DNA from: Escherichia coli
Lineage (GTDB): Bacteria > Pseudomonadota > Gammaproteobacteria > Enterobacterales > Enterobacteriaceae
Reading direction: 5' to 3' (one strand)
DNA length: 64,000 nt
Assembly (NCBI RefSeq): GCF_044647545.1
Contig: NZ_CP172818.1
This document shows, piece after piece, positions 2,791-45,167 of this stretch; position 1 is the first letter of the stretch, and each line of letters starts with the position of its first letter. A model generated the notes under the pieces. The model was given only the letters and a program-made list of their open reading frames with translations. It made no database searches and was not told the origin of the DNA. Position numbers and translations under genes: made by a program.

Positions 2791-3333
2791 ATGCGAATTA
2801 AACCAGACGATAACTGGCGTTGGTATTACGATGAAGAGCACGATCGAATGATGCTCGATTTAGCCAATGGTATGCTATTTCGCTCACGTTTTGCGCGCAA
2901 AATGTTGACTCCAGATGCCTTTTCTCCCGCAGGCTTTTGCGTTGACGACGCCGCGCTCTATTTCTCATTTGAAGAAAAATGCCGCGATTTTAATTTATCT
3001 AAAGAACAAAAAGCCGAACTGGTGCTTAATGCGCTGGTAGCAATTCGTTATCTCAAACCGCAAATGCCGAAAAGCTGGCATTTTGTTTCCCATGGTGAAA
3101 TGTGGGTGCCCATGCCGGGCGATGCGGCCTGCGTTTGGTTGAGCGACACTCACGAGCAAGTCAATTTGCTGGTCGTTGAATCTGGCGAAAATGCCGCACT
3201 ATGCCTGCTGGCACAACCCTGCGTTGTTATTGCGGGTCGCGCGATGCAGTTGGGCGACGCCATCAAAATCATGAACGACAGGCTGAAACCGCAGGTTAAT
3301 GTTGACAGCTTCAGCCTCGAACAGGCAGTTTAA
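2791..3333 (+). CDS. zapC: Cell division protein ZapC
   Basis: 180-aa ORF starting [24 protein letters not shown]; located after pyrD as in K-12. Confidence 0.9.
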
Positions 3334-4439
3334 CGCGTCAGCTTAAGTGCAGTCTTCGGTACACAACTACAGCAAAGAATAGTGCCATCATCACCCATTG
3401 CTGATTTTTTCAGCGGCGTGACTTCGCCTTCTAAAAGCTGAACACGGCAACTTCCACAAATGCCCGCGCGGCAAGAATAAGGGATACGAATTCCCTGATT
3501 TTCTAATTGCTCCAGCAGCACCTGTTGGTTATTTCCACGAAATGCCTGTCCCTGCCAGTCAATATCTACGTTTGCGTCCGGTTGTTGCGTGATGTTGGCA
3601 GTATCATCGGCGGCACCTGTGCCGTAAATTTTAGCTGGAGCCGTTGCCAGAATTTCCACCTCATCGCCAACGCGAATCACGCCGCTATTACGGGCAATTA
3701 AATTCTGACCAAAATCGACATCGCCGTTATCCTGGGCAGTACGGAAAGATTGCAGCGTTTTTAATGGTTCGCCTGCCGGATGTTTTTGCCCTTTTTCTGG
3801 GCTGACGGTGGTGAAAATACAGCGGCTACAAGGCTTAACCACATCAAACACGACATCACCAATGCGAATCACTTTCCAGCTATCTTCTTCCCAGGTCGAT
3901 GCACCGGAAACCACCAGATTGGGGCGGAATTGCTCCATTTTTACACTGGCCGGACAACGTTGTTGGAGATCACGTAACGAGGCCTCGTTAGCAAGAAGGT
4001 AAGGATAGCCATCAGCAAATGACAGGGGTACAGTGTTGTGGCGTTTCACGCGCCGGGTCATTTGTGGCCCCACCCAGCGTAATTGCACTTCGCGGGAGAA
4101 AAATCCACTTAGCCATTTGTTGATCGCGTCTGGCGCAATTCGCGCGGTAAAATGTGTGCCCCAAACTTCGGTTGGTGCGTCTTGTGTGGCGAAATCAGCA
4201 AAACGAACATATGCGCTACTGCCATCTGGTGCGGTGAGATGCAAGCCATCATGCACAGGTGAAGGAATAAACCGTACCATCTGGGGAAACTGGCGAGCAG
4301 TAATAAACGTACCGTCAGGTTCCGTGATCATAAAGATGCGATCGAAGGCCAGACCACTGACATCTGCCAGAGCATGTGTAAGACCAATGCCGCGCATCGA
4401 TTTAACAGGATGAATAAAAAGCCGGGTTAATGTCGCCAC
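3330..4439 (-). CDS. ycbX: MOSC/2Fe-2S ferredoxin-domain protein
   Basis: 369-aa [23 protein letters not shown]...; C-terminal CxxGxCGxC ferredoxin motif (CRAGICGSC). Confidence 0.9.
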
Positions 4440-16747: not shown

Positions 16748-17103
16748 TTTTTGCGCCTCGTTATCATCCAAAATACGCCATGAATATCTCCAACGAGATA
16801 ACACGGTTAAATCCTTCACCGGGGGATCTGCTCAATATTAACTCTACCGATATCTTCGGCTTATGCCGAGCACCCCTGGCGATGTAAAGTCTACAACGTA
16901 GTTGAAAACTTACAAGTGTGAACTCCGTCAGGCATATGAAAAAAAAGTCTTGTATAAGGTACGTTTAATCTTTTTTGTCAGCGACAATTTACAGAAAAAA
17001 ATCGCGGAAACCGCTTCACACAAGCCTCCGCAAGGAAAATTAGTCACGACTGAAAGCATTGGCTGGGCGACAAAAAAAGTTCCAGGATTAATCCTAAATT
17101 TAC

Positions 17104-17613
17104 TTAATGATACAAATTAGAGTGAATTTTTAGCCCGGAAAGTTGTCTCGTTGCGTGAGAGGATGCGCTTACCGGACGCATAATAAACCCCATAGCGTTA
17201 CCTTCATTTGCCGCATCAACAAGTTCAGCATGCTCTTCTTCAGTCAAATCATCTGCCAACCAACCGATCACCACACTGTAATTGCCCGTGCGTAAAGCGC
17301 GAACCATTGACTCCACGGTGTGGCAAGGGGAGAGCTGGCTAATCTGCATCACTTTCGTTAAGGGTAGCCCAGATGCCAGAACCCATTCCCGACTCAGTTT
17401 TTGTTGCGGTGTTAACCAGAGTTGCCAGCGCGATTGCTGACCGAGTTGCTGTAACAATGGCAACAGTAGAAGTTGCGTCATCATGGGCTGATCTTCGCGA
17501 TAGACAACTTCACTGATAAGCCCGGCTGTAGTGTTTTCCGTAGAGACACGCGCAATTTTACTTGCTGCGGATGAGAACGACGAAGAACGATGTGCATAGC
17601 CTGAAGTGTACAT
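17104..17613 (-). CDS. sulA: SOS cell-division inhibitor SulA
   Basis: 169-aa [32 protein letters not shown]...; LexA box immediately upstream. Confidence 0.95.
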
Positions 17614-17635
17614 AATCAATCCAGCCCCTGTGAGT

Positions 17636-17655
17636 TACTGTATGAATGTACAGTA
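17636..17655. promoter_or_regulatory. LexA operator (SOS box) of sulA
   Basis: tactgtatgaatgtacagta matches CTGT-N8-ACAG palindrome, 23 bp upstream of the sulA start. Confidence 0.8.
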
Positions 17656-17831
17656 CATCCAGTGACGACAAAGATCAACTCTATTTTCGGAAAGAGCCTC
17701 GCAAATTTTGTCGTTGGTGACGGGAAAACATAAATTAATCTTGCCCCTTAAGAATAAGTTGCCTATTTTCGTAGTTAACGGATCCGTTAATGTGAATCAT
17801 TCTTTTATGTTATGATTTTAAAAGGAATTTT

Positions 17832-18461
17832 ATGAAAAGCCTCTCCTATAAGCGGATCTATAAATCACAAGAATACCTGGCAACGTTGGGCACAATTGAA
17901 TACCGATCATTGTTTGGTAGTTACAGCCTGACCGTTGACGACACGGTGTTTGCGATGGTTTCTGATGGTGAGTTGTATCTTCGGGCTTGTGAGCAAAGTG
18001 CACAGTACTGTGTAAAACATCCGCCTGTTTGGCTGACATATAAAAAGTGTGGCCGATCCGTTACCCTCAATTACTATCGGGTTGATGAAAGTCTATGGCG
18101 AAATCAACTGAAGCTGGTGCGTCTGTCGAAATATTCTCTCGATGCAGCGCTGAAAGAGAAAAGCACGCGCAATACCCGGGAAAGACTGAAAGATTTGCCC
18201 AATATGTCTTTTCATCTGGAAGCGATTCTCGGGGAGGTGGGGATTAAGGATGTACGGGCGTTACGTATACTAGGGGCAAAAATGTGTTGGTTGCGACTGC
18301 GGCAGCAAAACAGTCTGGTGACAGAAAAGATTCTGTTTATGCTTGAAGGGGCCATTATCGGCATTCATGAAGCTGCGCTCCCGGTGGCACGCCGCCAGGA
18401 GCTTGCAGAATGGGCTGACTCTCTTACGCCGAAACAGGAGTTTCCTGCGGAACTTGAGTAA
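17832..18461 (+). CDS. sxy: Competence regulator Sxy/TfoX
   Basis: 209-aa ORF MKSLSYKRIYKSQEYLATLGTIEYRSLFG... Confidence 0.9.
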   Translation: MKSLSYKRIYKSQEYLATLGTIEYRSLFGSYSLTVDDTVFAMVSDGELYLRACEQSAQYCVKHPPVWLTYKKCGRSVTLNYYRVDESLWRNQLKLVRLSKYSLDAALKEKSTRNTRERLKDLPNMSFHLEAILGEVGIKDVRALRILGAKMCWLRLRQQNSLVTEKILFMLEGAIIGIHEAALPVARRQELAEWADSLTPKQEFPAELE

Positions 18462-20577
18462 TCTGGCGTTGCAGACGACCAATCTCTGGCAGTAATGCAA
18501 TCAATAACCCAACTTGTTGTACGACCAGAGGTTCTTTGCTGTCTGCCCGTGGTTCAAGTTGCTGCATCCGCTGTTTCAGGCCAGCTAATGCCTGATTGAC
18601 GCGTTCTTCATCAGCAGGTTGATGATGTAACGCGTCATCAACATAGCAAACTGCGTCATCAAGAAACGCCAGAATTTCAGGATTAGTTAACTGCTCCCGG
18701 TGAGCACCGAGGGCTGAGATATAGCTGGTAAACGTATGGTTAAGGCACAGCAACCGAAACGCGGCCTCACGAATTTGCGGGGTAACGTTCGGCTCGCTGG
18801 ACATATTTGATACCACCGACGCCAGTTCAGCATCACGGTTGTGTGCATCGCGGCGGGCAATACGATACGCCAGACGGTTATCACGCCCCTGATGGTATTG
18901 CTCCAGTATGGCATCGAGATAGCGACAGTTGGCCTCGGTGGCACGTTCGAGCATGCGCGGCAGATTGCGAAACTTCCAGTCAGGCCAGATGTAGCTCACC
19001 GCCGCCCACGCAATGGCACAACCAATCAGCGTATCGATTACGCGAGGTAACGCCACTTCAAAACCTTCACCCAGCAAGTTAAAACAAAGTAGCACCAAAA
19101 GTGTGATGAACATCGTTGCATGGGCGTATTGCACGTTACGGAAGGCAAAAAAGAGCACGCCGGTAATAACCAGTAGCACCAGTTGCCCTTCCAGTGACGG
19201 TACAAACCACAGCACAGGAATGCCAATCGCGATACCGACCAGCGTCCCAATAATCCTTAACTTCAGGCGGTGGCGAGTGGCGTTATAGTTTGGCTGGCAG
19301 ACAAACAAACTTGTCAGCAAGATCCAATACCCGTGATGCATTCCGGTTATCTGAATGATGGCGTAGCCGAAGCACAACACCAGCGACATTCTTACCGCAT
19401 GACGGAAGAGGGCGGATTCCGGCGTGAAGTGACGGCTAAGACGCAGCCAGATATCACTCAATCCGTGCGGGCTGTCATCAGCGAGCTCATTTTCGTCATT
19501 ATTATGGGGCAGTGCCTGGGCCTGTTCTGATTCAATTGTTGCCAGTTGGGCATCAATGGCGCGTAAATTGTTCAGCAAAAATCCCAGTGTTTTGAGTAAA
19601 TCGGCAGGTGCGCCGTTATCGCGCATCCGCTCCAGCGCAGCATCAATATGCGTAAAAGCGCGCTCGAAATGCGGATCATGTTGATAAGGCTGACGCAACA
19701 AAATACAACGTGACAGTTGCTGGCACGCCTGGCCCTGCATCGACATCAGTCGCTGAAAACGGAACAGCACGTCGCTGTGGCGAAAATGTTCACGCAATGT
19801 TTGATACTGAATATGAGAAGAGCTGGCACGCTCGTGAATATCCTGCGCGACAAAGTAATAATGCAGCGTGCGACGCGTTCCCCGTTGACCACGATCGCCA
19901 CGTAAGCGGGTCAGCAGCGAGAGTTTCGTCTGATTCAATGTCGCCATCAGTTGACCGTTGGCGAGAGCCAAATCGTACAGCGGTGCCTGGCTTTCATCTT
20001 CAATATCAGGATCAAACATGCGCGACTTGAGCTCAAGATAACGCGCCAGTTGTTCATAGCAACGCGCCAGGTTGTCCTGCAGCGGGCGGACCGGGAACAG
20101 CAGATGACCAATAAGTGTCAGGACGTTGTACCAGACGGCACCGGCCAGCAGATACATCGGCTGCTGATACCAGTGCTCATACAGTGACGTCCCCAACATA
20201 GTGTAAATGGCGATCAGTAACGCACCGAAGGCAATTGTTGCATAGCGTTGACCCAGACCGCCGAGCAAAATGAAGCCGCTGGTTGAGAGCGTTAAGCCAA
20301 TCGCAAATAGCCAGGGCCAGGGAAACAGCAGTTCTACTGAGGCCGAGGCGATAAAAAAGCAGAACAGCGTAATGATGAGGTTACGCAAACGTCCCGCCAG
20401 TCGGTCATCGAGATCGGTCAGCGCCGCTGCCACCATCCCCAGCGTCAGCGGAATCGTCAGTTTTACATCACCCAGCCACCACGGAAACGCTGTGGTTCCA
20501 CAAAGCGCAATAAAAATACCCGCGTAATACAGCCAGGCGCTGTTCCAGGTATAGCGTTTGAGCAAAGGACTTAGCAT
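18424..20577 (-). CDS. yccS: Inner membrane protein YccS (FUSC-like)
   Basis: 717-aa ORF from ATG at 20577 (MLSPLLKRYTWNSAWLYYAGIF...); multiple hydrophobic segments. Confidence 0.9.
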   Translation of the reverse strand: MLSPLLKRYTWNSAWLYYAGIFIALCGTTAFPWWLGDVKLTIPLTLGMVAAALTDLDDRLAGRLRNLIITLFCFFIASASVELLFPWPWLFAIGLTLSTSGFILLGGLGQRYATIAFGALLIAIYTMLGTSLYEHWYQQPMYLLAGAVWYNVLTLIGHLLFPVRPLQDNLARCYEQLARYLELKSRMFDPDIEDESQAPLYDLALANGQLMATLNQTKLSLLTRLRGDRGQRGTRRTLHYYFVAQDIHERASSSHIQYQTLREHFRHSDVLFRFQRLMSMQGQACQQLSRCILLRQPYQHDPHFERAFTHIDAALERMRDNGAPADLLKTLGFLLNNLRAIDAQLATIESEQAQALPHNNDENELADDSPHGLSDIWLRLSRHFTPESALFRHAVRMSLVLCFGYAIIQITGMHHGYWILLTSLFVCQPNYNATRHRLKLRIIGTLVGIAIGIPVLWFVPSLEGQLVLLVITGVLFFAFRNVQYAHATMFITLLVLLCFNLLGEGFEVALPRVIDTLIGCAIAWAAVSYIWPDWKFRNLPRMLERATEANCRYLDAILEQYHQGRDNRLAYRIARRDAHNRDAELASVVSNMSSEPNVTPQIREAAFRLLCLNHTFTSYISALGAHREQLTNPEILAFLDDAVCYVDDALHHQPADEERVNQALAGLKQRMQQLEPRADSKEPLVVQQVGLLIALLPEIGRLQRQITQVPQETPVSA

Positions 20578-20595
20578 AAAGGCCATATTAGTGGA

Positions 20596-21042
20596 TTATT
20601 CAAAACGACGACGTGCATTGGCTTCACGCGCAGCTTGCGCTGTTTCTACCGATACCACGCGACGACCGACCGGCCATAGTGCAATAGCGGCAATTTTAAA
20701 GTTCGCAATGCCGACAGGAATGCCAATGATGGAAATACATTGTGCGATGCCCGTTGCAATGTGCATCAGGCATAACCACCAGCCAAAGAAAATCAGCCAG
20801 AAAATATTCAATACCGTACCGCCAGTATTTAGCAGCACATTTTTGCCAGCCGGGTTCAGTTCATCGACATGAATAGCTTCATTGCCATAAGGCACTAGAG
20901 ACAGTTTAGTGATCTCCCAGCAGGATCGTGTCAGCGGTAAGGTAAAAATCAGCACAATACTGACCAGAGTCGCCAACAGCCAGCCCAGAGTGGTGGCAAA
21001 TCCGCCAAGCACAAAGTTCAGAATGTTCAAAACGGTACGCAT
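20596..21042 (-). CDS. yccF: Inner membrane protein YccF
   Basis: 148-aa ORF MRTVLNILNFVLGGFATTLGWLLATLV... Confidence 0.9.
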   Translation of the reverse strand: MRTVLNILNFVLGGFATTLGWLLATLVSIVLIFTLPLTRSCWEITKLSLVPYGNEAIHVDELNPAGKNVLLNTGGTVLNIFWLIFFGWWLCLMHIATGIAQCISIIGIPVGIANFKIAAIALWPVGRRVVSVETAQAAREANARRRFE

Positions 21043-21164
21043 AAAACCTCGCTTTACTGTGGTTTTCAGTAATGGGCGGCAATTGTAACGTTTTTTTGGG
21101 CTGGAGCACGTTTTCTCTGACGGTTACACTGATAAGAAATCATTTCGTGTGGATCTACAGAGTC

Positions 21165-23219
21165 ATGGAACTGAAAGCGACAACGCTTGGAAAACGTCTG
21201 GCACAGCACCCTTACGATCGGGCGGTGATCCTCAATGCCGGGATTAAAGTCTCCGGCGATCGCCACGAATACCTTATTCCTTTCAATCAATTACTGGCGA
21301 TTCACTGTAAGCGCGGTCTGGTATGGGGCGAGCTGGAATTTGTACTGCCGGACGAAAAAGTGGTGCGTCTGCACGGCACCGAATGGGGCGAGACGCAGCG
21401 TTTTTACCATCATCTTGATACTCACTGGCGGCGGTGGAGTGGGGAGATGGGCGAAATTGCGTCTGGCGTTTTACGTCAGCAACTGGATTTGATTGCCACG
21501 CGCACCGGAGAAAATAAATGGCTGACGCGTGAGCAAACCTCTGGTGTGCAGCAACAAATCCGCCAGGCTTTGTCGGCGTTGCCGTTGCCGGTTAACCGAC
21601 TGGAAGAATTCGATAACTGCCGTGAGGCGTGGCGTAAATGTCAGGCCTGGTTGAAGGACATTGAAGGCGCTCGGTTGCAGCATAATCAGGCGTATACCGA
21701 AGCCATGCTTACCGAGTATGCGGATTTTTTCCGCCAGGTCGAGTCTTCACCGCTGAATCCGGCGCAGGCCCGGGCAGTCGTTAATGGCGAGCATTCTTTG
21801 TTAGTGCTGGCTGGTGCAGGAAGCGGAAAAACGTCGGTGCTGGTGGCCCGTGCAGGCTGGTTGCTGGCACGTGGTGAAGCGTCCCCTGAGCAAATTTTAT
21901 TGCTGGCGTTTGGTCGCAAAGCCGCTGAAGAGATGGACGAGCGTATTCGCGAACGGCTACATACCGAAGACATTACCGCACGCACATTTCATGCGCTGGC
22001 GCTGCATATTATTCAGCAGGGCAGCAAAAAAGTTCCGATAGTCAGCAAACTGGAAAATGATACCGCTGCCCGTCATGAACTTTTTATTGCTGAGTGGCGC
22101 AAGCAATGCAGCGAAAAGAAAGCGCAGGCGAAGGGCTGGCGGCAATGGCTGACGGAAGAAATGCAGTGGTCAGTGCCAGAAGGTAACTTCTGGGATGATG
22201 AAAAATTACAGCGTCGTCTTGCCTCACGCATCGATCGTTGGGTAAGTCTGATGCGGATGCACGGTGGTGCACAGGCAGAAATGATTGCCAGTGCACCCGA
22301 AGAGATTCGCGATCTGTTCAGTAAACGTATCAAGTTGATGGCTCCGTTATTAAAAGCCTGGAAAGGTGCGCTGAAGGCAGAAAACGCTGTCGATTTTTCG
22401 GGCCTTATTCACCAGGCGATTGTGATTCTGGAGAAAGGTCGCTTTATCAGCCCGTGGAAGCATATTCTGGTTGATGAATTTCAGGATATCTCGCCGCAGC
22501 GCGCAGCGTTGTTAGCGGCATTACGCAAGCAAAACAGTCAGACGACGTTGTTCGCCGTTGGTGATGACTGGCAGGCGATTTATCGCTTCAGCGGTGCGCA
22601 AATGTCGCTCACCACCGCTTTCCATGAAAACTTTGGTGAAGGTGATCGCTGCGATTTAGACACGACTTACCGTTTTAACAGTCGTATCGGTGAGGTGGCA
22701 AACCGGTTTATTCAGCAGAACCCAGGCCAGCTGAAAAAGCCGCTAAACAGCTTAACCAATGGAGACAAAAAAGCCGTCACGTTATTGGATGAGAGCCATC
22801 TTGACGCTTTGCTGGATAAGCTCTCTGGTTATGCCAAACCGGAAGAGCGCATTCTGATCCTGGCGCGTTACCATCACATGAGGCCTGCCAGCCTGGAAAA
22901 AGCGGCAACACGCTGGCCGAAGTTGCAAATCGACTTTATGACCATTCATGCCAGCAAAGGGCAACAGGCGGATTACGTCATCATCGTTGGCTTGCAGGAG
23001 GGGAGTGATGGTTTTCCGGCTGCGGCGCGGGAGTCGATTATGGAAGAGGCGCTACTGCCACCGGTTGAGGATTTCCCGGACGCTGAAGAACGGCGGTTAA
23101 TGTACGTGGCGCTGACCCGGGCACGCCATCGGGTATGGGCACTGTTTAACAAAGAGAATCCCTCTCCATTTGTCGAAATACTGAAAAATCTGGATGTGCC
23201 GGTGGCGAGAAAACCGTAA
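21165..23219 (+). CDS. helD: DNA helicase IV
   Basis: 684-aa ORF from ATG at 21165 (MELKATTLGKRLAQHPYDRAV...); Walker A GAGSGKTSV; UvrD-like motifs. Confidence 0.9.
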   Translation: MELKATTLGKRLAQHPYDRAVILNAGIKVSGDRHEYLIPFNQLLAIHCKRGLVWGELEFVLPDEKVVRLHGTEWGETQRFYHHLDTHWRRWSGEMGEIASGVLRQQLDLIATRTGENKWLTREQTSGVQQQIRQALSALPLPVNRLEEFDNCREAWRKCQAWLKDIEGARLQHNQAYTEAMLTEYADFFRQVESSPLNPAQARAVVNGEHSLLVLAGAGSGKTSVLVARAGWLLARGEASPEQILLLAFGRKAAEEMDERIRERLHTEDITARTFHALALHIIQQGSKKVPIVSKLENDTAARHELFIAEWRKQCSEKKAQAKGWRQWLTEEMQWSVPEGNFWDDEKLQRRLASRIDRWVSLMRMHGGAQAEMIASAPEEIRDLFSKRIKLMAPLLKAWKGALKAENAVDFSGLIHQAIVILEKGRFISPWKHILVDEFQDISPQRAALLAALRKQNSQTTLFAVGDDWQAIYRFSGAQMSLTTAFHENFGEGDRCDLDTTYRFNSRIGEVANRFIQQNPGQLKKPLNSLTNGDKKAVTLLDESHLDALLDKLSGYAKPEERILILARYHHMRPASLEKAATRWPKLQIDFMTIHASKGQQADYVIIVGLQEGSDGFPAAARESIMEEALLPPVEDFPDAEERRLMYVALTRARHRVWALFNKENPSPFVEILKNLDVPVARKP

Positions 23220-26757: not shown

Positions 26758-27036
26758 ATGTCGAAAGTCTGCATAATTGCCTGGGTTTACGGGCGAGTTC
26801 AGGGCGTAGGATTCCGCTACACCACGCAGTACGAAGCGAAAAAACTGGGACTAACCGGGTACGCCAAAAATCTTGACGATGGCAGCGTGGAAGTGGTTGC
26901 CTGCGGTGAAGAAGGGCAGGTGGAAAAATTAATGCAGTGGTTAAAAAGTGGCGGCCCGCGTTCAGCGCGTGTGGAACGGGTGCTTAGCGAGCCGCATCAT
27001 CCCTCCGGGGAGTTAACGGATTTTCGTATCCGTTAA
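26758..27036 (+). CDS. yccX: Acylphosphatase
   Basis: 92-aa [41 protein letters not shown] (acylphosphatase signature VQGVGFR). Confidence 0.9.
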
Positions 27037-38581: not shown

Positions 38582-38840
38582 CGGGGGGACGACGGGCGAC
38601 GGGGGCCGCGGGGAAGACGACGGGACGCGGGGCTATCCGCCAGCGCGGCTGTTCGCGTTGCGGGTCGCGGCGCGGGCCCCGTGGTGCGCCTGCCGCTGGG
38701 CGCCTGGCCTGCTCGGCCTGCGGGGGTTGGTGCGGCGGGGCCGCTTGTCCCGCCGGGCGCCGCGCGCGTCCGCGGGCGGCCGTCGGCGCTCGGCGCGGGC
38801 GGGCCGCGCCTCGGGGGCCGCCCCCCCCGGGCGCCTCTCC
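38582..38840. other. Compositionally foreign GC-rich block (about 85% GC) at the appA-cspH junction; origin unknown
   Basis: Counted 80-93% GC per 60-nt line against roughly 50% in flanks; G/C homopolymer runs (8 C at 38821-38828); open frames on both strands with Arg/Gly/Pro/Ala-rich translations and no RBS. Confidence 0.8.
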
Positions 38841-40167: not shown

Positions 40168-41241
40168 TTAGTGACCAATCATTGGCGCTTGCGGAATTAA
40201 GCGTCGGTACAATTCCTGCGGCACCGGGCTTTGCCATACTCCCGCATACATTGCGTAACCAATCACCGCAAACATAATCCCCAGAACCAGTAGCGTCATT
40301 AACCAGCCAGACAACGCAAAGGCTTTTTTATTTGCCGCAGGTTTTTGCAGTGAAAAGGTTAATGTTGAGGCTACCGGACATGACTCTACGCAAGTCATAC
40401 AGCCGGTACATTCCACTGTTCGTACCTGAATTAATTTATCGACCGGGATCCGTGATGGGCAATTTTTTGCGCATTTGCCACAGTCGATACAACTTTCGGC
40501 ATTGCGACGAATCTTAAACGGCGATAATAGCGAAACCATGCCCATCAGCGCGCCATATGGGCAAAGATAACGACACCAGGCATGGCGAATAAACAGGCTG
40601 GCAATCAGCAAAACGGTCACGCTGATTAATGTCGCGGTCCCCATATGACGAAAGAAATCGAGCATTTTAACGTCCATCACCACGCTGTAGGGCGACAACA
40701 TAAAATAGTGAATCGCCTGAGCGGGCATCAATAACGCGATATAGAGAAAAAAACTCAACAGCAAATACTTCACGCCGCGCAGAGGAATATCCAGCCAGCG
40801 GGGAAGGACACATTGCCGACCAAACAGTTTGTTACCGAGATCGCCGATTAATTCAGAAAGCGTACCAACCGGGCATAACCATGAGCAAAAGGCCTTTTTG
40901 AGTAATAGACTGATGACGATAAAAGCGACCAATAACAGCATCGCGGCGGCGTGGACGGACGGTAACTGACCTGTTGCAAGGCTATATTTCAGATTCATCA
41001 GACCGGCAATCGGTAGCCAGCCTTCGATACCTCCCGGTCTGGCGACAAATGTCGTACTACCTGCCGTTTCGTAATAGCGCACCCAATACCAGAACGTGAT
41101 GGCAATATAAATATTCATTGCCAACAGTAATAATTGCGTCGCTTTACGCCAGGTCGTGGCATTGCGCCAGTCATTCCACGGTAATTTGCCGCCCGTCGTG
41201 CCTGGCCGCCGCTGCCAGCGGGTTCTTTTTTTCTCTGCCAT
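40168..41241 (-). CDS. yccM: Membrane-bound 4Fe-4S ferredoxin-like protein (NapH/MauN family)
   Basis: 357-aa ORF MAEKKRTRWQRRPGTTGGKLPWNDW...; two CxxCxxCxxxCP clusters. Confidence 0.9.
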   Translation of the reverse strand: MAEKKRTRWQRRPGTTGGKLPWNDWRNATTWRKATQLLLLAMNIYIAITFWYWVRYYETAGSTTFVARPGGIEGWLPIAGLMNLKYSLATGQLPSVHAAAMLLLVAFIVISLLLKKAFCSWLCPVGTLSELIGDLGNKLFGRQCVLPRWLDIPLRGVKYLLLSFFLYIALLMPAQAIHYFMLSPYSVVMDVKMLDFFRHMGTATLISVTVLLIASLFIRHAWCRYLCPYGALMGMVSLLSPFKIRRNAESCIDCGKCAKNCPSRIPVDKLIQVRTVECTGCMTCVESCPVASTLTFSLQKPAANKKAFALSGWLMTLLVLGIMFAVIGYAMYAGVWQSPVPQELYRRLIPQAPMIGH

Positions 41242-41323
41242 GATTTTGCCAGTCCGTTAAGTTGCATACCAAATGCCACTATTCTAGTTGTTCTTAACTG
41301 GCTGATATTGATTCAAATCGCGT

Positions 41324-44056
41324 TCAGGTCTTTCTTATTAACCATGCTTCCAGAGCGGCAACACTGCGTGTAATTTCTTCGTGTGGAAGGGGGGCAGATA
41401 ATGGCTGCTGCTCCAGTTGTGCGCAAAGCTGGCTGGCGCTACGCATTCCCAGACTCGAGCAACTGCTTTTTAGCTGATGTGCGGCACGCTTTATTTTTTC
41501 GCTGTTCTGGCTGGCGCGGGCAATGTCGATTTCATCGAGAAGCGGCAGGGCATGTTGTTTAAATAATATCAGCCATTCGTGGATCTTCTCCGTCCCCATC
41601 AACTGAGCATCTTCATTGAGTTGCGATACATCCAGCGGTTGATCGTTATTGACTTGTAGTTGGAGATAGTGCGCCAGTAACTGACCGAGCACTTCACGCG
41701 GCACCGGTTTAGGGATAATCCCGCGAAATAATGAACTGGTACGCTGGCGCAACGTTTCGTCGATGACATGAGCGCTAAAGCCAATCAAAACCAGCGACGG
41801 ATATTGCTGTGCCAGTTGCCGGGCAAGCGTGATGCCGTCGATATCGGGCAGATCAAAATCCACCAGTGCGGCAGCAAACGGTTCACTATTTTGCAACGTC
41901 TCTATCGCGTGCGCGGCATTTCCTACCGCAACGACCTGCGCACCACTGGTAGTCAGCATCTCGACGGTAATTCGCTGGGTTAGCGGGTTATCTTCAATTA
42001 ACAGCAAACGTAAACCGTCCAGACGCACCGCCTGATTGACTGTTTTTGGCACGGGAGCAGTGGCAACACGTAACGGCAAGCGTAAACAAAAACAGCTTCC
42101 AACTTCCGGCGTGCTGGTGGCGCTCAGTTCGCCGCCCATCGCCTGGGCCAGACGGCTACTGATAGTCAGCCCCAGCCCGGTGCCGCCGCGTTTGCCGCTT
42201 ACCTGCACAAATGGCTGGAAGATTTCTGCCAGTTTCGCGGGATCAATACCGCAGCCGCTGTCTTCCACTTCGACCAGCCATTGCTCGCCATCAGTGCGGC
42301 TACGTAAAACGATCTGCCCTTCGTCAGTAAAACGCAGGGCGTTGCTCAACAGGTTGGTTATAACCTGACGAATACGTCGCGGATCGCCCATTAACGCGGT
42401 CGGTACATCGTCGGCAATTGCTGTTGCCAGGTGAATCGGGCGACCTTTAACCCGTCCGCTCATTAATTGCAGGGTACTTTCCAGCAGCGGGCGCGGTTCA
42501 AAGGGCTCATCGCTGACCGAAACATTCTTGCCACCCGCTTCGATAGCCGAATAATCGAGAATATCGTTGAGGATGGTCAGCAACGATTCACCAGAGTCGG
42601 TAATTGCCCGCAAATCATCACGCTGGGCATTAAGTGCGGGGTTATCTGCCAGCAGTTGCGCGGTGCCAAGAATACCGTACAGCGGTGTGCGGATCTCATG
42701 GCTCATCGCCGCCAGAAACGCCGATTTTGCCTGGCTGGCTTTTTCTGCTTCCGCCCGTGCCTGTCGGTGTTCTATCACCAGTTCCTGCAATTCAGCTGTA
42801 CGCGCTTTGACCTGCGCCGCCAGCTGTTCACGGTGGCGATTCAGTGCATGAACACTGCTGCGAAACGCATCCATCAGCCGCCCGATGGTGTCCAGCTCCC
42901 GCACGCCAGCGGTTTCCGGGAAAGGGGAGTTGATATCACCGTCCAGCAGCCGTTGCAGCGCCTGCGTTTGTTCGGCAAGTGGACGCGTGACTGAGCGATA
43001 AACCACGCGCCAGAGGATCAGAATCAGTGCGCAAAGTGAAACCATCCCCAGCAATAACAGGCTGTATTGCCCGCGTGCACTGGCTTTTTCCAGATGCGCC
43101 AGTCCGTGCTGATTACGCAGCTCAATGGTGTCGACCAGCTGACTGACTTCGCTACTAAACTGCGCGAACTGGGCGATGTTATTTTGGGCGAGAGTTTGCA
43201 GGCGATTGCTGATTTCACTGTCCTGCTGATACAGCGCCAGCAAATCGCTATATTGGCTAACGGTAGTTAACGTTGTTGCGACCTGAGCACGAACTCCCGG
43301 ATCTTCAATGCGTATTTGCCGACGTTGCAGAATTTTCACCGCATTATTGAGCTGGTGTTCCAGCGTTGCTGCATTTTTCTGGATCTGCTCCAGCCCAAGA
43401 TTCATCACCATTTGCTGCACCCGCAGGGCGCTAAGGCGCAGTTCATTCATCTGGTTAACATACTCAAGATCGATATCAATCAGCCGATCGAGTGCACTTT
43501 CTGCGGCCTGACGCTGATGTTGTTCGATCAAATCGTAAATCCCGGCCTGGGTCGCTCCGGCGGAAGTTGCCGCATTATTCGCCTGACCTTGCGCCAGGCG
43601 TGCGATTTCATCGGCGGCGGCGACTATCTGCTGACTGAGTCGCTGTTGTTGCTGGCGCAGTTGCAAACGCTGCCCCACCAGTTCCCCTTGCTGACGTAAC
43701 GAACGGGAGATCTCCTGCTCCTGTTGTTCAATAGCGGTGGTATCAAAACCTTGTTCCCGTAACGCTTGCAGCAACGCATTAATCTTCAGGCTTTGTGCGG
43801 TGAGCATTCGCCCCTGCGCCTGCCACATCTTTTCGTTATCGGCACTGGTCAGGTTCTGCGCGGCGAAAAGTTCCCAGGCGCTGGCTTCGCTCAACTGGCG
43901 CGCCATATTCATGGTAGGAATCAATGCCTGAGTGTTGTCTTTTTCCACTTGGCTGATAAAGCGCAGGTTGTACCATCCCACCAGGGTACTGGTCAGGGTT
44001 AACAGCGCCATCAGGGCAAAGCCCATCCAGAGTCTTCGGGTCAGGGTTAAATTCAC
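41324..44056 (-). CDS. torS: TMAO sensor hybrid histidine kinase TorS (start approximate)
   Basis: Long ORF with HisKA (SHEIRTPL), HATPase, receiver and HPt regions; probable GTG start at 44056 giving (M)[18 protein letters not shown]; start codon choice not verified. Confidence 0.85.
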
Positions 44057-44138: not shown

Positions 44139-45167
44139 ATGCGCGTACTGCTATTGTTACTTCTTTCCCTTTTCATGTTATCGGCATTTTCGGCTGATAA
44201 CCTGTTGCGCTGGCATGATGCGCAGCATTTCTCGGTGCAACCCTCTACGCCGCTTAAAACCAAACGTGCATGGAAACTGTGCGCGCTTTATCCCAGCCTG
44301 AAAGATTCATACTGGTTATCGTTGAACTATGGTATGCAGGAGGCTGCTCGCCGCTACGGTGTGGATTTAAAAGTGCTGGAGGCAGGCGGCTACAGCCAGT
44401 TGGCTACCCAGCAAGCACAAATCGACCAGTGTAAACAGTGGGGCGCAGAGGCCATTTTGCTCGGTAGTAGCACGACGTCATTTCCCGACCTGCAAAAGCA
44501 GGTAGCAAGTCTGCCGGTGATCGAACTGGTAAATGCTATTGATGCTCCCCAGGTGAAAAGCCGCGTTGGTGTACCCTGGTTTCAGATGGGCTATCAACCA
44601 GGACGATATCTGGTGCAATGGGCGCACGGTAAACCACTGAACGTGCTGTTGATGCCCGGACCCGATAACGCCGGGGGCAGTAAGGAGATGGTCGAGGGTT
44701 TTCGCGCAGCCATTGCCGGAAGCCCGGTACGTATTGTTGATATTGCGCTTGGCGATAACGATATTGAAATCCAGCGTAACCTGTTGCAGGAGATGCTGGA
44801 GCGCCATCCAGAAATCGACGTCGTTGCCGGAACGGCCATTGCGGCAGAGGCGGCAATGGGGGAAGGGCGTAACCTGAAAACACCGCTTACCGTGGTGTCG
44901 TTTTATCTTTCACATCAGGTGTATCGCGGGCTGAAGCGGGGAAGAGTGATTATGGCTGCCAGCGATCAAATGGTCTGGCAGGGGGAACTGGCGGTTGAGC
45001 AGGCCATCAGGCAATTACAGGGGCAATCGGTGTCTGATAATGTCAGCCCACCGATTTTAGTTCTGACGCCGAAAAATGCCGACCGCGAACATATCCGCCG
45101 CTCGCTGTCACCGGGGGGATTTCGTCCGGTCTATTATTATCAGCACACATCAGCGGCTAAGAAATAA
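44139..45167 (+). CDS. torT: Periplasmic TMAO-binding protein TorT
   Basis: 342-aa [28 protein letters not shown]... (signal peptide); divergent from torS. Confidence 0.9.

Follow-up and report, generated by a model that had tools for sequence, protein, structure and literature searches.

The window analysed here is a 64,000-nucleotide stretch of Escherichia coli DNA in which the convergent genes sxy (tfoX) and yccS overlap at their 3′ ends. The coding features at this junction are:

17832-18461, plus strand: sxy (tfoX) coding sequence, 209 amino acids, with its TAA stop codon at 18459-18461.
18424-20586, minus strand: yccS coding sequence, 720 amino acids in the PGAP annotation, with its TAA stop codon read as TTA at 18424-18426.
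18424-18461, both strands: tail-to-tail overlap of the sxy and yccS coding sequences, 38 bp.
20596-21042, minus strand: yccF coding sequence; yccF opens the yccF-yccS transcription unit.

The open reading frame list and inspection of the sequence place each stop codon inside the coding sequence of the opposite strand, and RefSeq agrees, so the gene identities and the 38-bp overlap reported in the initial annotation are right. The RefSeq annotation of FDAARGOS_497, which is 100% identical over the tested stretch, gives both genes identical coordinates. The comparison with reference annotation that had been proposed as a check extends to K-12 MG1655 (RefSeq), in which sxy (b0959, 1021138-1021767) and yccS (b0960, 1021730-1023883) also overlap by 38 bp. 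The yccS start differs between annotations (window 20577-20586): PGAP places the ATG at 20586, for 720 amino acids, and K-12 b0960 uses an ATG 9 bases downstream, for 717. The locus is found in 5425 of 5426 complete E. coli genomes and the overlap is conserved across genera, which bears out the suggestion that it is native.

Both reading frames are genuine protein-coding genes, as judged from Pfam matches and from orthologues in many genera. Sxy matches TfoX_N (E 1.4e-25) and TfoX_C (E 3.3e-27), the latter ending at residue 194 of 209, and YccS matches FUSC-like (E 1.8e-115) and FUSC_2, with the last match ending at residue 685 of 720. The domains of both proteins stop short of the overlap, which encodes Sxy residues 198-209 and takes in the final 12 codons of yccS. 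The overlap is real, ancient, and already annotated. The convergence of sxy with the yccF-yccS operon was noted in 2014, and a 2025 catalogue lists the pair, already present in the reference annotation, as an excludon.

Statistically, the 38-bp overlap is unremarkable. The window has 14 convergent annotated pairs, five of which overlap; besides sxy/yccS these are:

3330-3333: zapC/ycbX, convergent coding overlap of 4 bp.
27033-27036: yccX/tusE, convergent coding overlap of 4 bp.
38609-38621: appA/cspH, convergent coding overlap of 13 bp.
44907-44934: torT/torR, convergent coding overlap of 28 bp.

These four pairs share the geometry of sxy/yccS and an origin by stop-codon movement, and the sxy/yccS overlap exceeds the rest in length while staying of the same order. 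In a census of E. coli, 663 adjacent pairs overlap, 75 of them convergently, and the convergent class is ascribed to movement of stop codons (PMC4161906). By simple arithmetic, the chance that a random frame meets no stop in 12 further codons is about (61/64)^12 = 0.56. Elsewhere in the window, torS (41080-43823) is a frameshifted pseudogene in the FDAARGOS_497 annotation.

Thirty related loci were gathered by pattern search and exact-protein look-up, and the window itself was added. The spacing between sxy and yccS in the 30 loci runs from a 44-bp gap to a 47-bp overlap, with values (negative for a gap) of -44, -2, 4, 11, 14, 20, 23, 26, 32, 35, 38, 41, 44, and 47 bp. By lineage these are:

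Escherichia, including E. fergusonii: overlap of 38 bp.
E. albertii: overlap of 41 bp.
Salmonella: overlap of 14 bp.
Citrobacter: overlap of 11, 23, 32, or 47 bp.
Intestinirhabdus: overlap of 35 bp.
Enterobacter and Lelliottia: overlap of 44 bp.
Leclercia: overlap of 20 bp.
Yokenella: overlap of 4 bp.
Relatives with 38-47% Sxy identity: spacing of 4, 26, -2, and -44 bp.

Even the distant loci L028 and L029 overlap, and a gap occurs only in two other distant relatives. Gene order (matP-ompA-sulA-sxy-yccS-yccF-helD) is retained in the loci with listed flanks, the exception being L028, in which yccF and sulA are uncalled. The cores of the two proteins, ...RRQELAEW in Sxy and ...LLPEIGRLQRQI in YccS, are conserved, and their C-terminal 10-13 residues vary between genera in both sequence and length. 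The variable tails and spacing fit drifting stop codons rather than a designed element. The arrangement suggested by these alignments is a native, ancestral tail-to-tail pairing of sxy with yccF-yccS that lacks an intergenic spacer: the conserved cores end about 46 bp apart, and each frame continues as a weakly constrained tail until it reaches a stop. Overlap length would then drift between lineages because stop codons move within these tails. A seeming rule that overlap length is always 2 mod 3 is true of the first 22 loci and is broken by the 4-bp overlaps of Yokenella and L028. Two Citrobacter loci (sp. Awk 4 and NCU1; L010 and L012) carry an earlier TAA in sxy that makes Sxy 9 residues shorter and the overlap 11 bp, and their sequence past this TAA can still be aligned with the longer tail of other species.

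Published transcript ends add a second layer to the junction. The transcription features, together with the structure and composition found around them, are:

21073, minus strand: yccF-yccS transcription start (K-12 1024379; PMC6131387).
18374, minus strand: yccF-yccS mRNA 3′ end (K-12 1021680, labelled novelTTS in sheet M9_TTS of Supplementary Data 1; PMC6131387).
18377-18402, minus strand: GC-rich stem-loop GCUCCUGG-CGGCGUGCCA-CCGGGAGC in the yccF-yccS 3′ UTR, inside sxy codons 183-190.
18209-18329, minus strand: C-rich, G-poor stretch lying 45-165 nt past the 3′ end, with a C/G ratio of 2.0-3.3 per 60 nt.
17776, plus strand: sxy unit transcription start (K-12 1021082), for which no defined 3′ end is reported (PMC6131387).

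SMRT-Cappable-seq resolves a yccF|yccS unit spanning K-12 1021680-1024379 on the reverse strand (PMC6131387). Window positions equal K-12 positions minus 1003306, and the 3′ end was checked on the K-12 sequence. The unit has 88 reads at its start, while 13 reads end at 1021680 and 6 pass it, with a median read-through of 298 nt; the 3′ end is thus supported by 13 long reads from one condition in one study (PMC6131387). It falls 50 nt after the yccS stop, which leaves a 50-nt 3′ UTR wholly within sxy and makes the yccF-yccS mRNA overlap the last 88 nt of the sxy coding sequence. In the Term-seq tables of Adams 2021, which mention neither sxy nor yccS, no minus-strand 3′ end is listed from K-12 1020120 to 1026525, possibly owing to low expression.

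The mapped end coincides with the foot of the stem-loop. It follows the final base pair of the core stem by 3 nt and falls in the GCAG arm of the outer CUGC/GCAG pairs, which lengthen the stem to 18373-18408. The hairpin lies about 20 nt 3′ of the yccS stop. Folding of the minus strand over 18280-18480 is unusually stable (z = -3.25), with energies of -18.6 kcal/mol for the core stem and -22.5 kcal/mol for the extended one. The hairpin lies inside the sxy coding sequence because there is no intergenic spacer to hold it.

A codon alignment of 26 distinct sxy sequences reveals strong synonymous constraint at the stem. The stem codons are near-invariant (CTC 25/26, CCG 25/26, CGC 24/26, CAG 20/20, and GAG 25/26), whereas conserved residues adjoining the stem are each encoded in three to six ways. 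Mean normalised synonymous entropy is 0.125 for the five stem codons versus 0.667 for the gene, and none of 20000 random five-column sets is as low. The stem is paired in 90.4% of cells, and three pairs change on both sides, as in one that appears as G-C, G.U, and A-U among Enterobacter and two Lelliottia. The covariation is modest and the sequences are related; 3 of 500 shuffles reach the observed score. The protein motif LPxxRR(Q/R)EL is conserved and limits the variation possible at the stem, but Yokenella keeps the motif (LPACRRKEL) and has lost the stem, so the palindrome is not forced by the protein. The island of frozen synonymous sites in sxy is instead attributed to the embedded yccF-yccS hairpin: without a spacer, the stem-loop that forms the 3′ end of one operon would sit in the coding sequence of the other gene and freeze its synonymous sites.

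In most lineages a stable hairpin, with z scores of -2 to -5, follows the yccS stop at a distance of 2-24 nt. At the equivalent place L029 has a perfect 13-bp hairpin, and L031, the most distant locus, has a GC hairpin in its 44-bp intergenic spacer; folding finds no convincing hairpin past the yccS stop in the distant loci L028 and L030. In Leclercia (L027, 4085-4125) a canonical minus-strand intrinsic terminator (CAGCUGCCGG...CCGGCAGCUUUUU) with a U5 run spans the yccS stop. The other strand of this Leclercia region codes for the Sxy tail KKLPVETPLTPAAD. Yokenella (L026, ~4075-4125) has a different stem (CUGGUUUAA...UUGAACCAG) across the yccS stop where the ancestral hairpin is lost, and this stem may be a replacement 3′ structure. 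Rfam has no family match; its sole hit, at 17781-17858 to a snoRNA model, is below threshold and due to chance. A palindrome in the overlap itself (CAGGAGTTTCCTG) was considered as a terminator and set aside: it is unconserved in other genera, lacks a U tract, and precedes both stops.

For an intrinsic or bidirectional terminator, we looked for a GC-rich stem followed by at least 5 U within about 8 nt, with an A tract upstream in the bidirectional case; neither strand of the E. coli junction has this arrangement, which appears only in Leclercia, on the minus strand. A terminator scan of 17000-21200 likewise finds no terminator-like site at the junction beyond the shuffle level. The stem is followed by GCAGCUUCAUGAAUG, which contains no U-rich tract, so the hairpin does not qualify as a canonical intrinsic terminator. 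Nor can it terminate productive sxy transcripts, because it lies upstream of the sxy stop. Downstream on the minus strand, the C-rich stretch at 18209-18329 is a possible Rho-loading region, judged by its composition. C-rich composition is, however, common on the antisense strand of genes.

These features recall a described class of Rho-dependent 3′ ends, in which a stem-loop without a U tract lies just upstream of the 3′ end and Rho-loading sequence lies downstream; termination there is diffuse and downstream, and exonucleases trim the transcript back to the protective stem-loop (PMC6061677). The likeness to the stem-loops of Dar and Sorek 2018 covers the stable GC stem without a U tract, the precise 3′ end, and the C-rich sequence downstream, but here the stem is not intergenic: it lies inside the coding sequence of a convergent gene and doubles as eight Sxy codons (PMC6061677). 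A junction stem-loop could also position head-on collisions of RNA polymerase, as described for bidirectional terminators (Wang et al. preprint, 10.1101/2022.10.23.513370), although the E. coli hairpin lacks the flanking A or U tracts of those elements. Because the 3′ end sits at the base of the stem, no U tract follows, and a C-rich stretch lies downstream, the yccF-yccS hairpin most likely acts like the 3′ stem-loops of Rho-terminated transcripts, from which we infer a role for Rho and exonucleases. Termination would occur further downstream in a Rho-dependent manner, exonucleases would trim the yccF-yccS mRNA back, and the hairpin would define, and probably protect, its 3′ end. About one third of the transcripts read on into sxy as antisense RNA.

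Taken jointly, a native spacerless tail-to-tail pair with drifting stops, a yccF-yccS 3′ hairpin embedded in sxy, and a Rho-type end make up the explanation that we regard as probable. The overlap as first described changes little; what is added is a single stretch of DNA with two roles, in that eight sxy codons double as the 3′-end hairpin of the mRNA of the neighbouring operon. The new detail is that this hairpin is embedded in the sxy coding sequence and constrains it, which makes it a new case of a known kind of element. This dual use is relevant to any recoding, deletion, or tagging of the sxy or yccS 3′ end: removing sxy cleanly also removes the 3′ hairpin of yccF-yccS, and deletion of yccS can shorten Sxy.

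The sxy transcript has no conserved terminator of its own. Synonymous sites in yccS codons 668-710 vary freely, which argues against a conserved sxy terminator embedded there. The same variation counts against a candidate plus-strand terminator at about 18481-18545 (CUCUGG...CCAGAG followed by GUUCUUUGCU). Over roughly 500 nt beyond the sxy stop, the plus strand shows no C-rich composition. With no conserved terminator, sxy transcripts would run into yccS as antisense RNA.

Transcript overlap at this junction is obligatory, because neither mRNA can include its required stop codon without entering the opposite gene. The initial annotation had held that its idea of overlapping convergent transcripts would fail if neither mRNA entered the other gene, an outcome that is impossible for functional mRNAs. 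Such transcripts do exist: the yccF-yccS mRNA ends within sxy (PMC6131387), and ExcludonFinder places sxy-yccS among 165 convergent excludons present in at least 50% of 58 MG1655 transcriptomes (PMC12288877). The pair thus consists of tail-to-tail overlapping genes with the transcript overlap expected of an excludon, a concept that draws its meaning from mutual exclusion and RNase III processing, both hypothetical for this pair. Like other members of the E. coli excludome, in which it is explicitly listed, it joins adjacent convergent genes with overlapping transcript 3′ ends, but here the coding sequences themselves overlap, and transcript overlap is unavoidable rather than a product of long 3′ UTRs (PMC12288877).

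Antisense reads are present in both genes. Sense and antisense counts, in RPM, are 32.7 and 9.7 for sxy (listed as yccR) and 63 and 20.9 for yccS, compared with 62 and 1.7 for matP, 17 and 0.5 for yccF, and 138 and 12.5 for helD (Huang et al.; PMC7373196). In these data the antisense-to-sense ratio is about 0.3 for sxy and yccS versus 0.03-0.09 for the three neighbours. Two dsRNA hot spots captured by p19 lie in yccS, at U00096.2 1021518-1021539 and 1022410-1022431 (PMC7373196). They correspond to window 18989-19010 and 19881-19902, respectively 528 and about 1420 nt beyond the stop of sxy, and they imply plus-strand antisense RNA deep in yccS, arising from sxy read-through or from internal antisense promoters. 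Upstream of sxy, sulA (17104-17613) also has a high antisense count (105 and 27 RPM, sense and antisense; PMC7373196), and a stationary-phase antisense transcription unit has been described over it (Conway et al.).

The strongest rival explanation holds that the pair is a selected excludon, in which collisions between RNA polymerases and RNase III cleavage of the duplex bring about mutual repression that helps to silence sxy. The excludome listing is in its favour, as are the roughly 30% of yccF-yccS long reads that pass the hairpin, antisense reads at about 30% of sense in both genes, and the tail-to-tail arrangement kept across genera. It would also sit well with the lack of any known condition that naturally induces E. 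coli sxy (PMC3330819). The listing, however, is expected, because overlap of the coding sequences makes overlap of the transcripts unavoidable: overlapping convergent coding sequences score as excludons by construction, and four of the five overlapping pairs in the window are listed, with zapC-ycbX, yccX-tusE, and torT-torR alongside sxy-yccS (PMC12288877). Among the p19 hot spots listed, none falls between U00096.2 1019873 and 1021518, and thus none in sxy or the overlap (PMC7373196). Loss of RNase III does not raise the sense reads of sxy or yccS in either of two rnc mutants; for sxy they stand at 21.6 and 16.0 RPM against 32.7 in the wild type (PMC7373196). Overlap length is also unconserved, falling to -2 and -44 bp in distant relatives, and sxy and yccS are both weakly expressed. 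Selection for mutual repression is therefore unlikely, regulation of sxy through the overlap has no support so far, the RNase III data giving no sign of it, and any effect of the overlap on sxy expression is inferred to be small. The initial annotation had linked the overlap to tight post-transcriptional control of Sxy. Such control is documented, but at the 5′ leader and in H. influenzae (PMC2248739, PMC3739930); the evidence found does not concern the E. coli 3′ end.

A related idea treats the hairpin as a leaky gate, through which about one third of yccF-yccS transcripts pass, run antisense through sxy, and lower its expression. By arithmetic, antisense read density over sxy exceeds what is expected if most yccF-yccS transcripts stopped at the hairpin, so the hairpin is an inefficient barrier or other antisense promoters contribute. 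If the gate were real, yccF-yccS transcription or Rho activity would help to decide when the cryptic competence regulon is switched on. Repression of sxy by antisense read-through would also bear on the absence of a known natural inducer of the E. coli competence genes, yet nothing found supports it, and a literature search on antisense control of sxy returned nothing specific. We hold this gating role to be improbable.

Equally doubtful is the proposal that the palindrome serves sxy itself, either as a plus-strand RNA element involved in pausing, processing, or stability or as a DNA site for a dimeric protein. The plus strand folds nearly as well as the minus strand (-18.1 versus -18.6 kcal/mol for the E. 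coli core, and equally well in some species), the outer arms stand at fixed spacing, and synonymous constraint alone does not tell which strand is selected. Wobble pairing, in contrast, favours the minus strand, on which 179 of 198 cells are paired versus 163 of 198 on the plus strand. The asymmetry comes with 23 G.U cells on the minus strand versus 7 would-be G.U cells on the plus, a minus-strand G.U being an A.C mismatch on the opposite strand. The 3′ end mapped 3 nt after the stem is likewise a minus-strand end. As a plus-strand element it would precede the sxy stop by 57 nt, in translated sequence that ribosomes would unwind. The unrelated hairpins, or the true terminator, found 3′ of yccS in other lineages also point to yccF-yccS as the operon served.

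That the overlap is an artefact of annotation or chance, with one protein ending earlier, could appeal to the poor conservation of the final 12 residues of Sxy and YccS outside the Pfam domains, but this is effectively refuted, given that stops, unlike starts, are fixed by the frame, that both frames are open to their stops, that K-12 and PGAP annotate the same structure independently, and that every related locus shows overlap or near-abutment.

One further sequence recovered in the locus search (L023) is a 276-bp contig in an assembly of Alkalicoccobacillus porphyridii (Bacillota). It is 99% identical to E. coli sxy, its name gives a coverage of about 1x, and this sxy fragment is almost certainly contamination.
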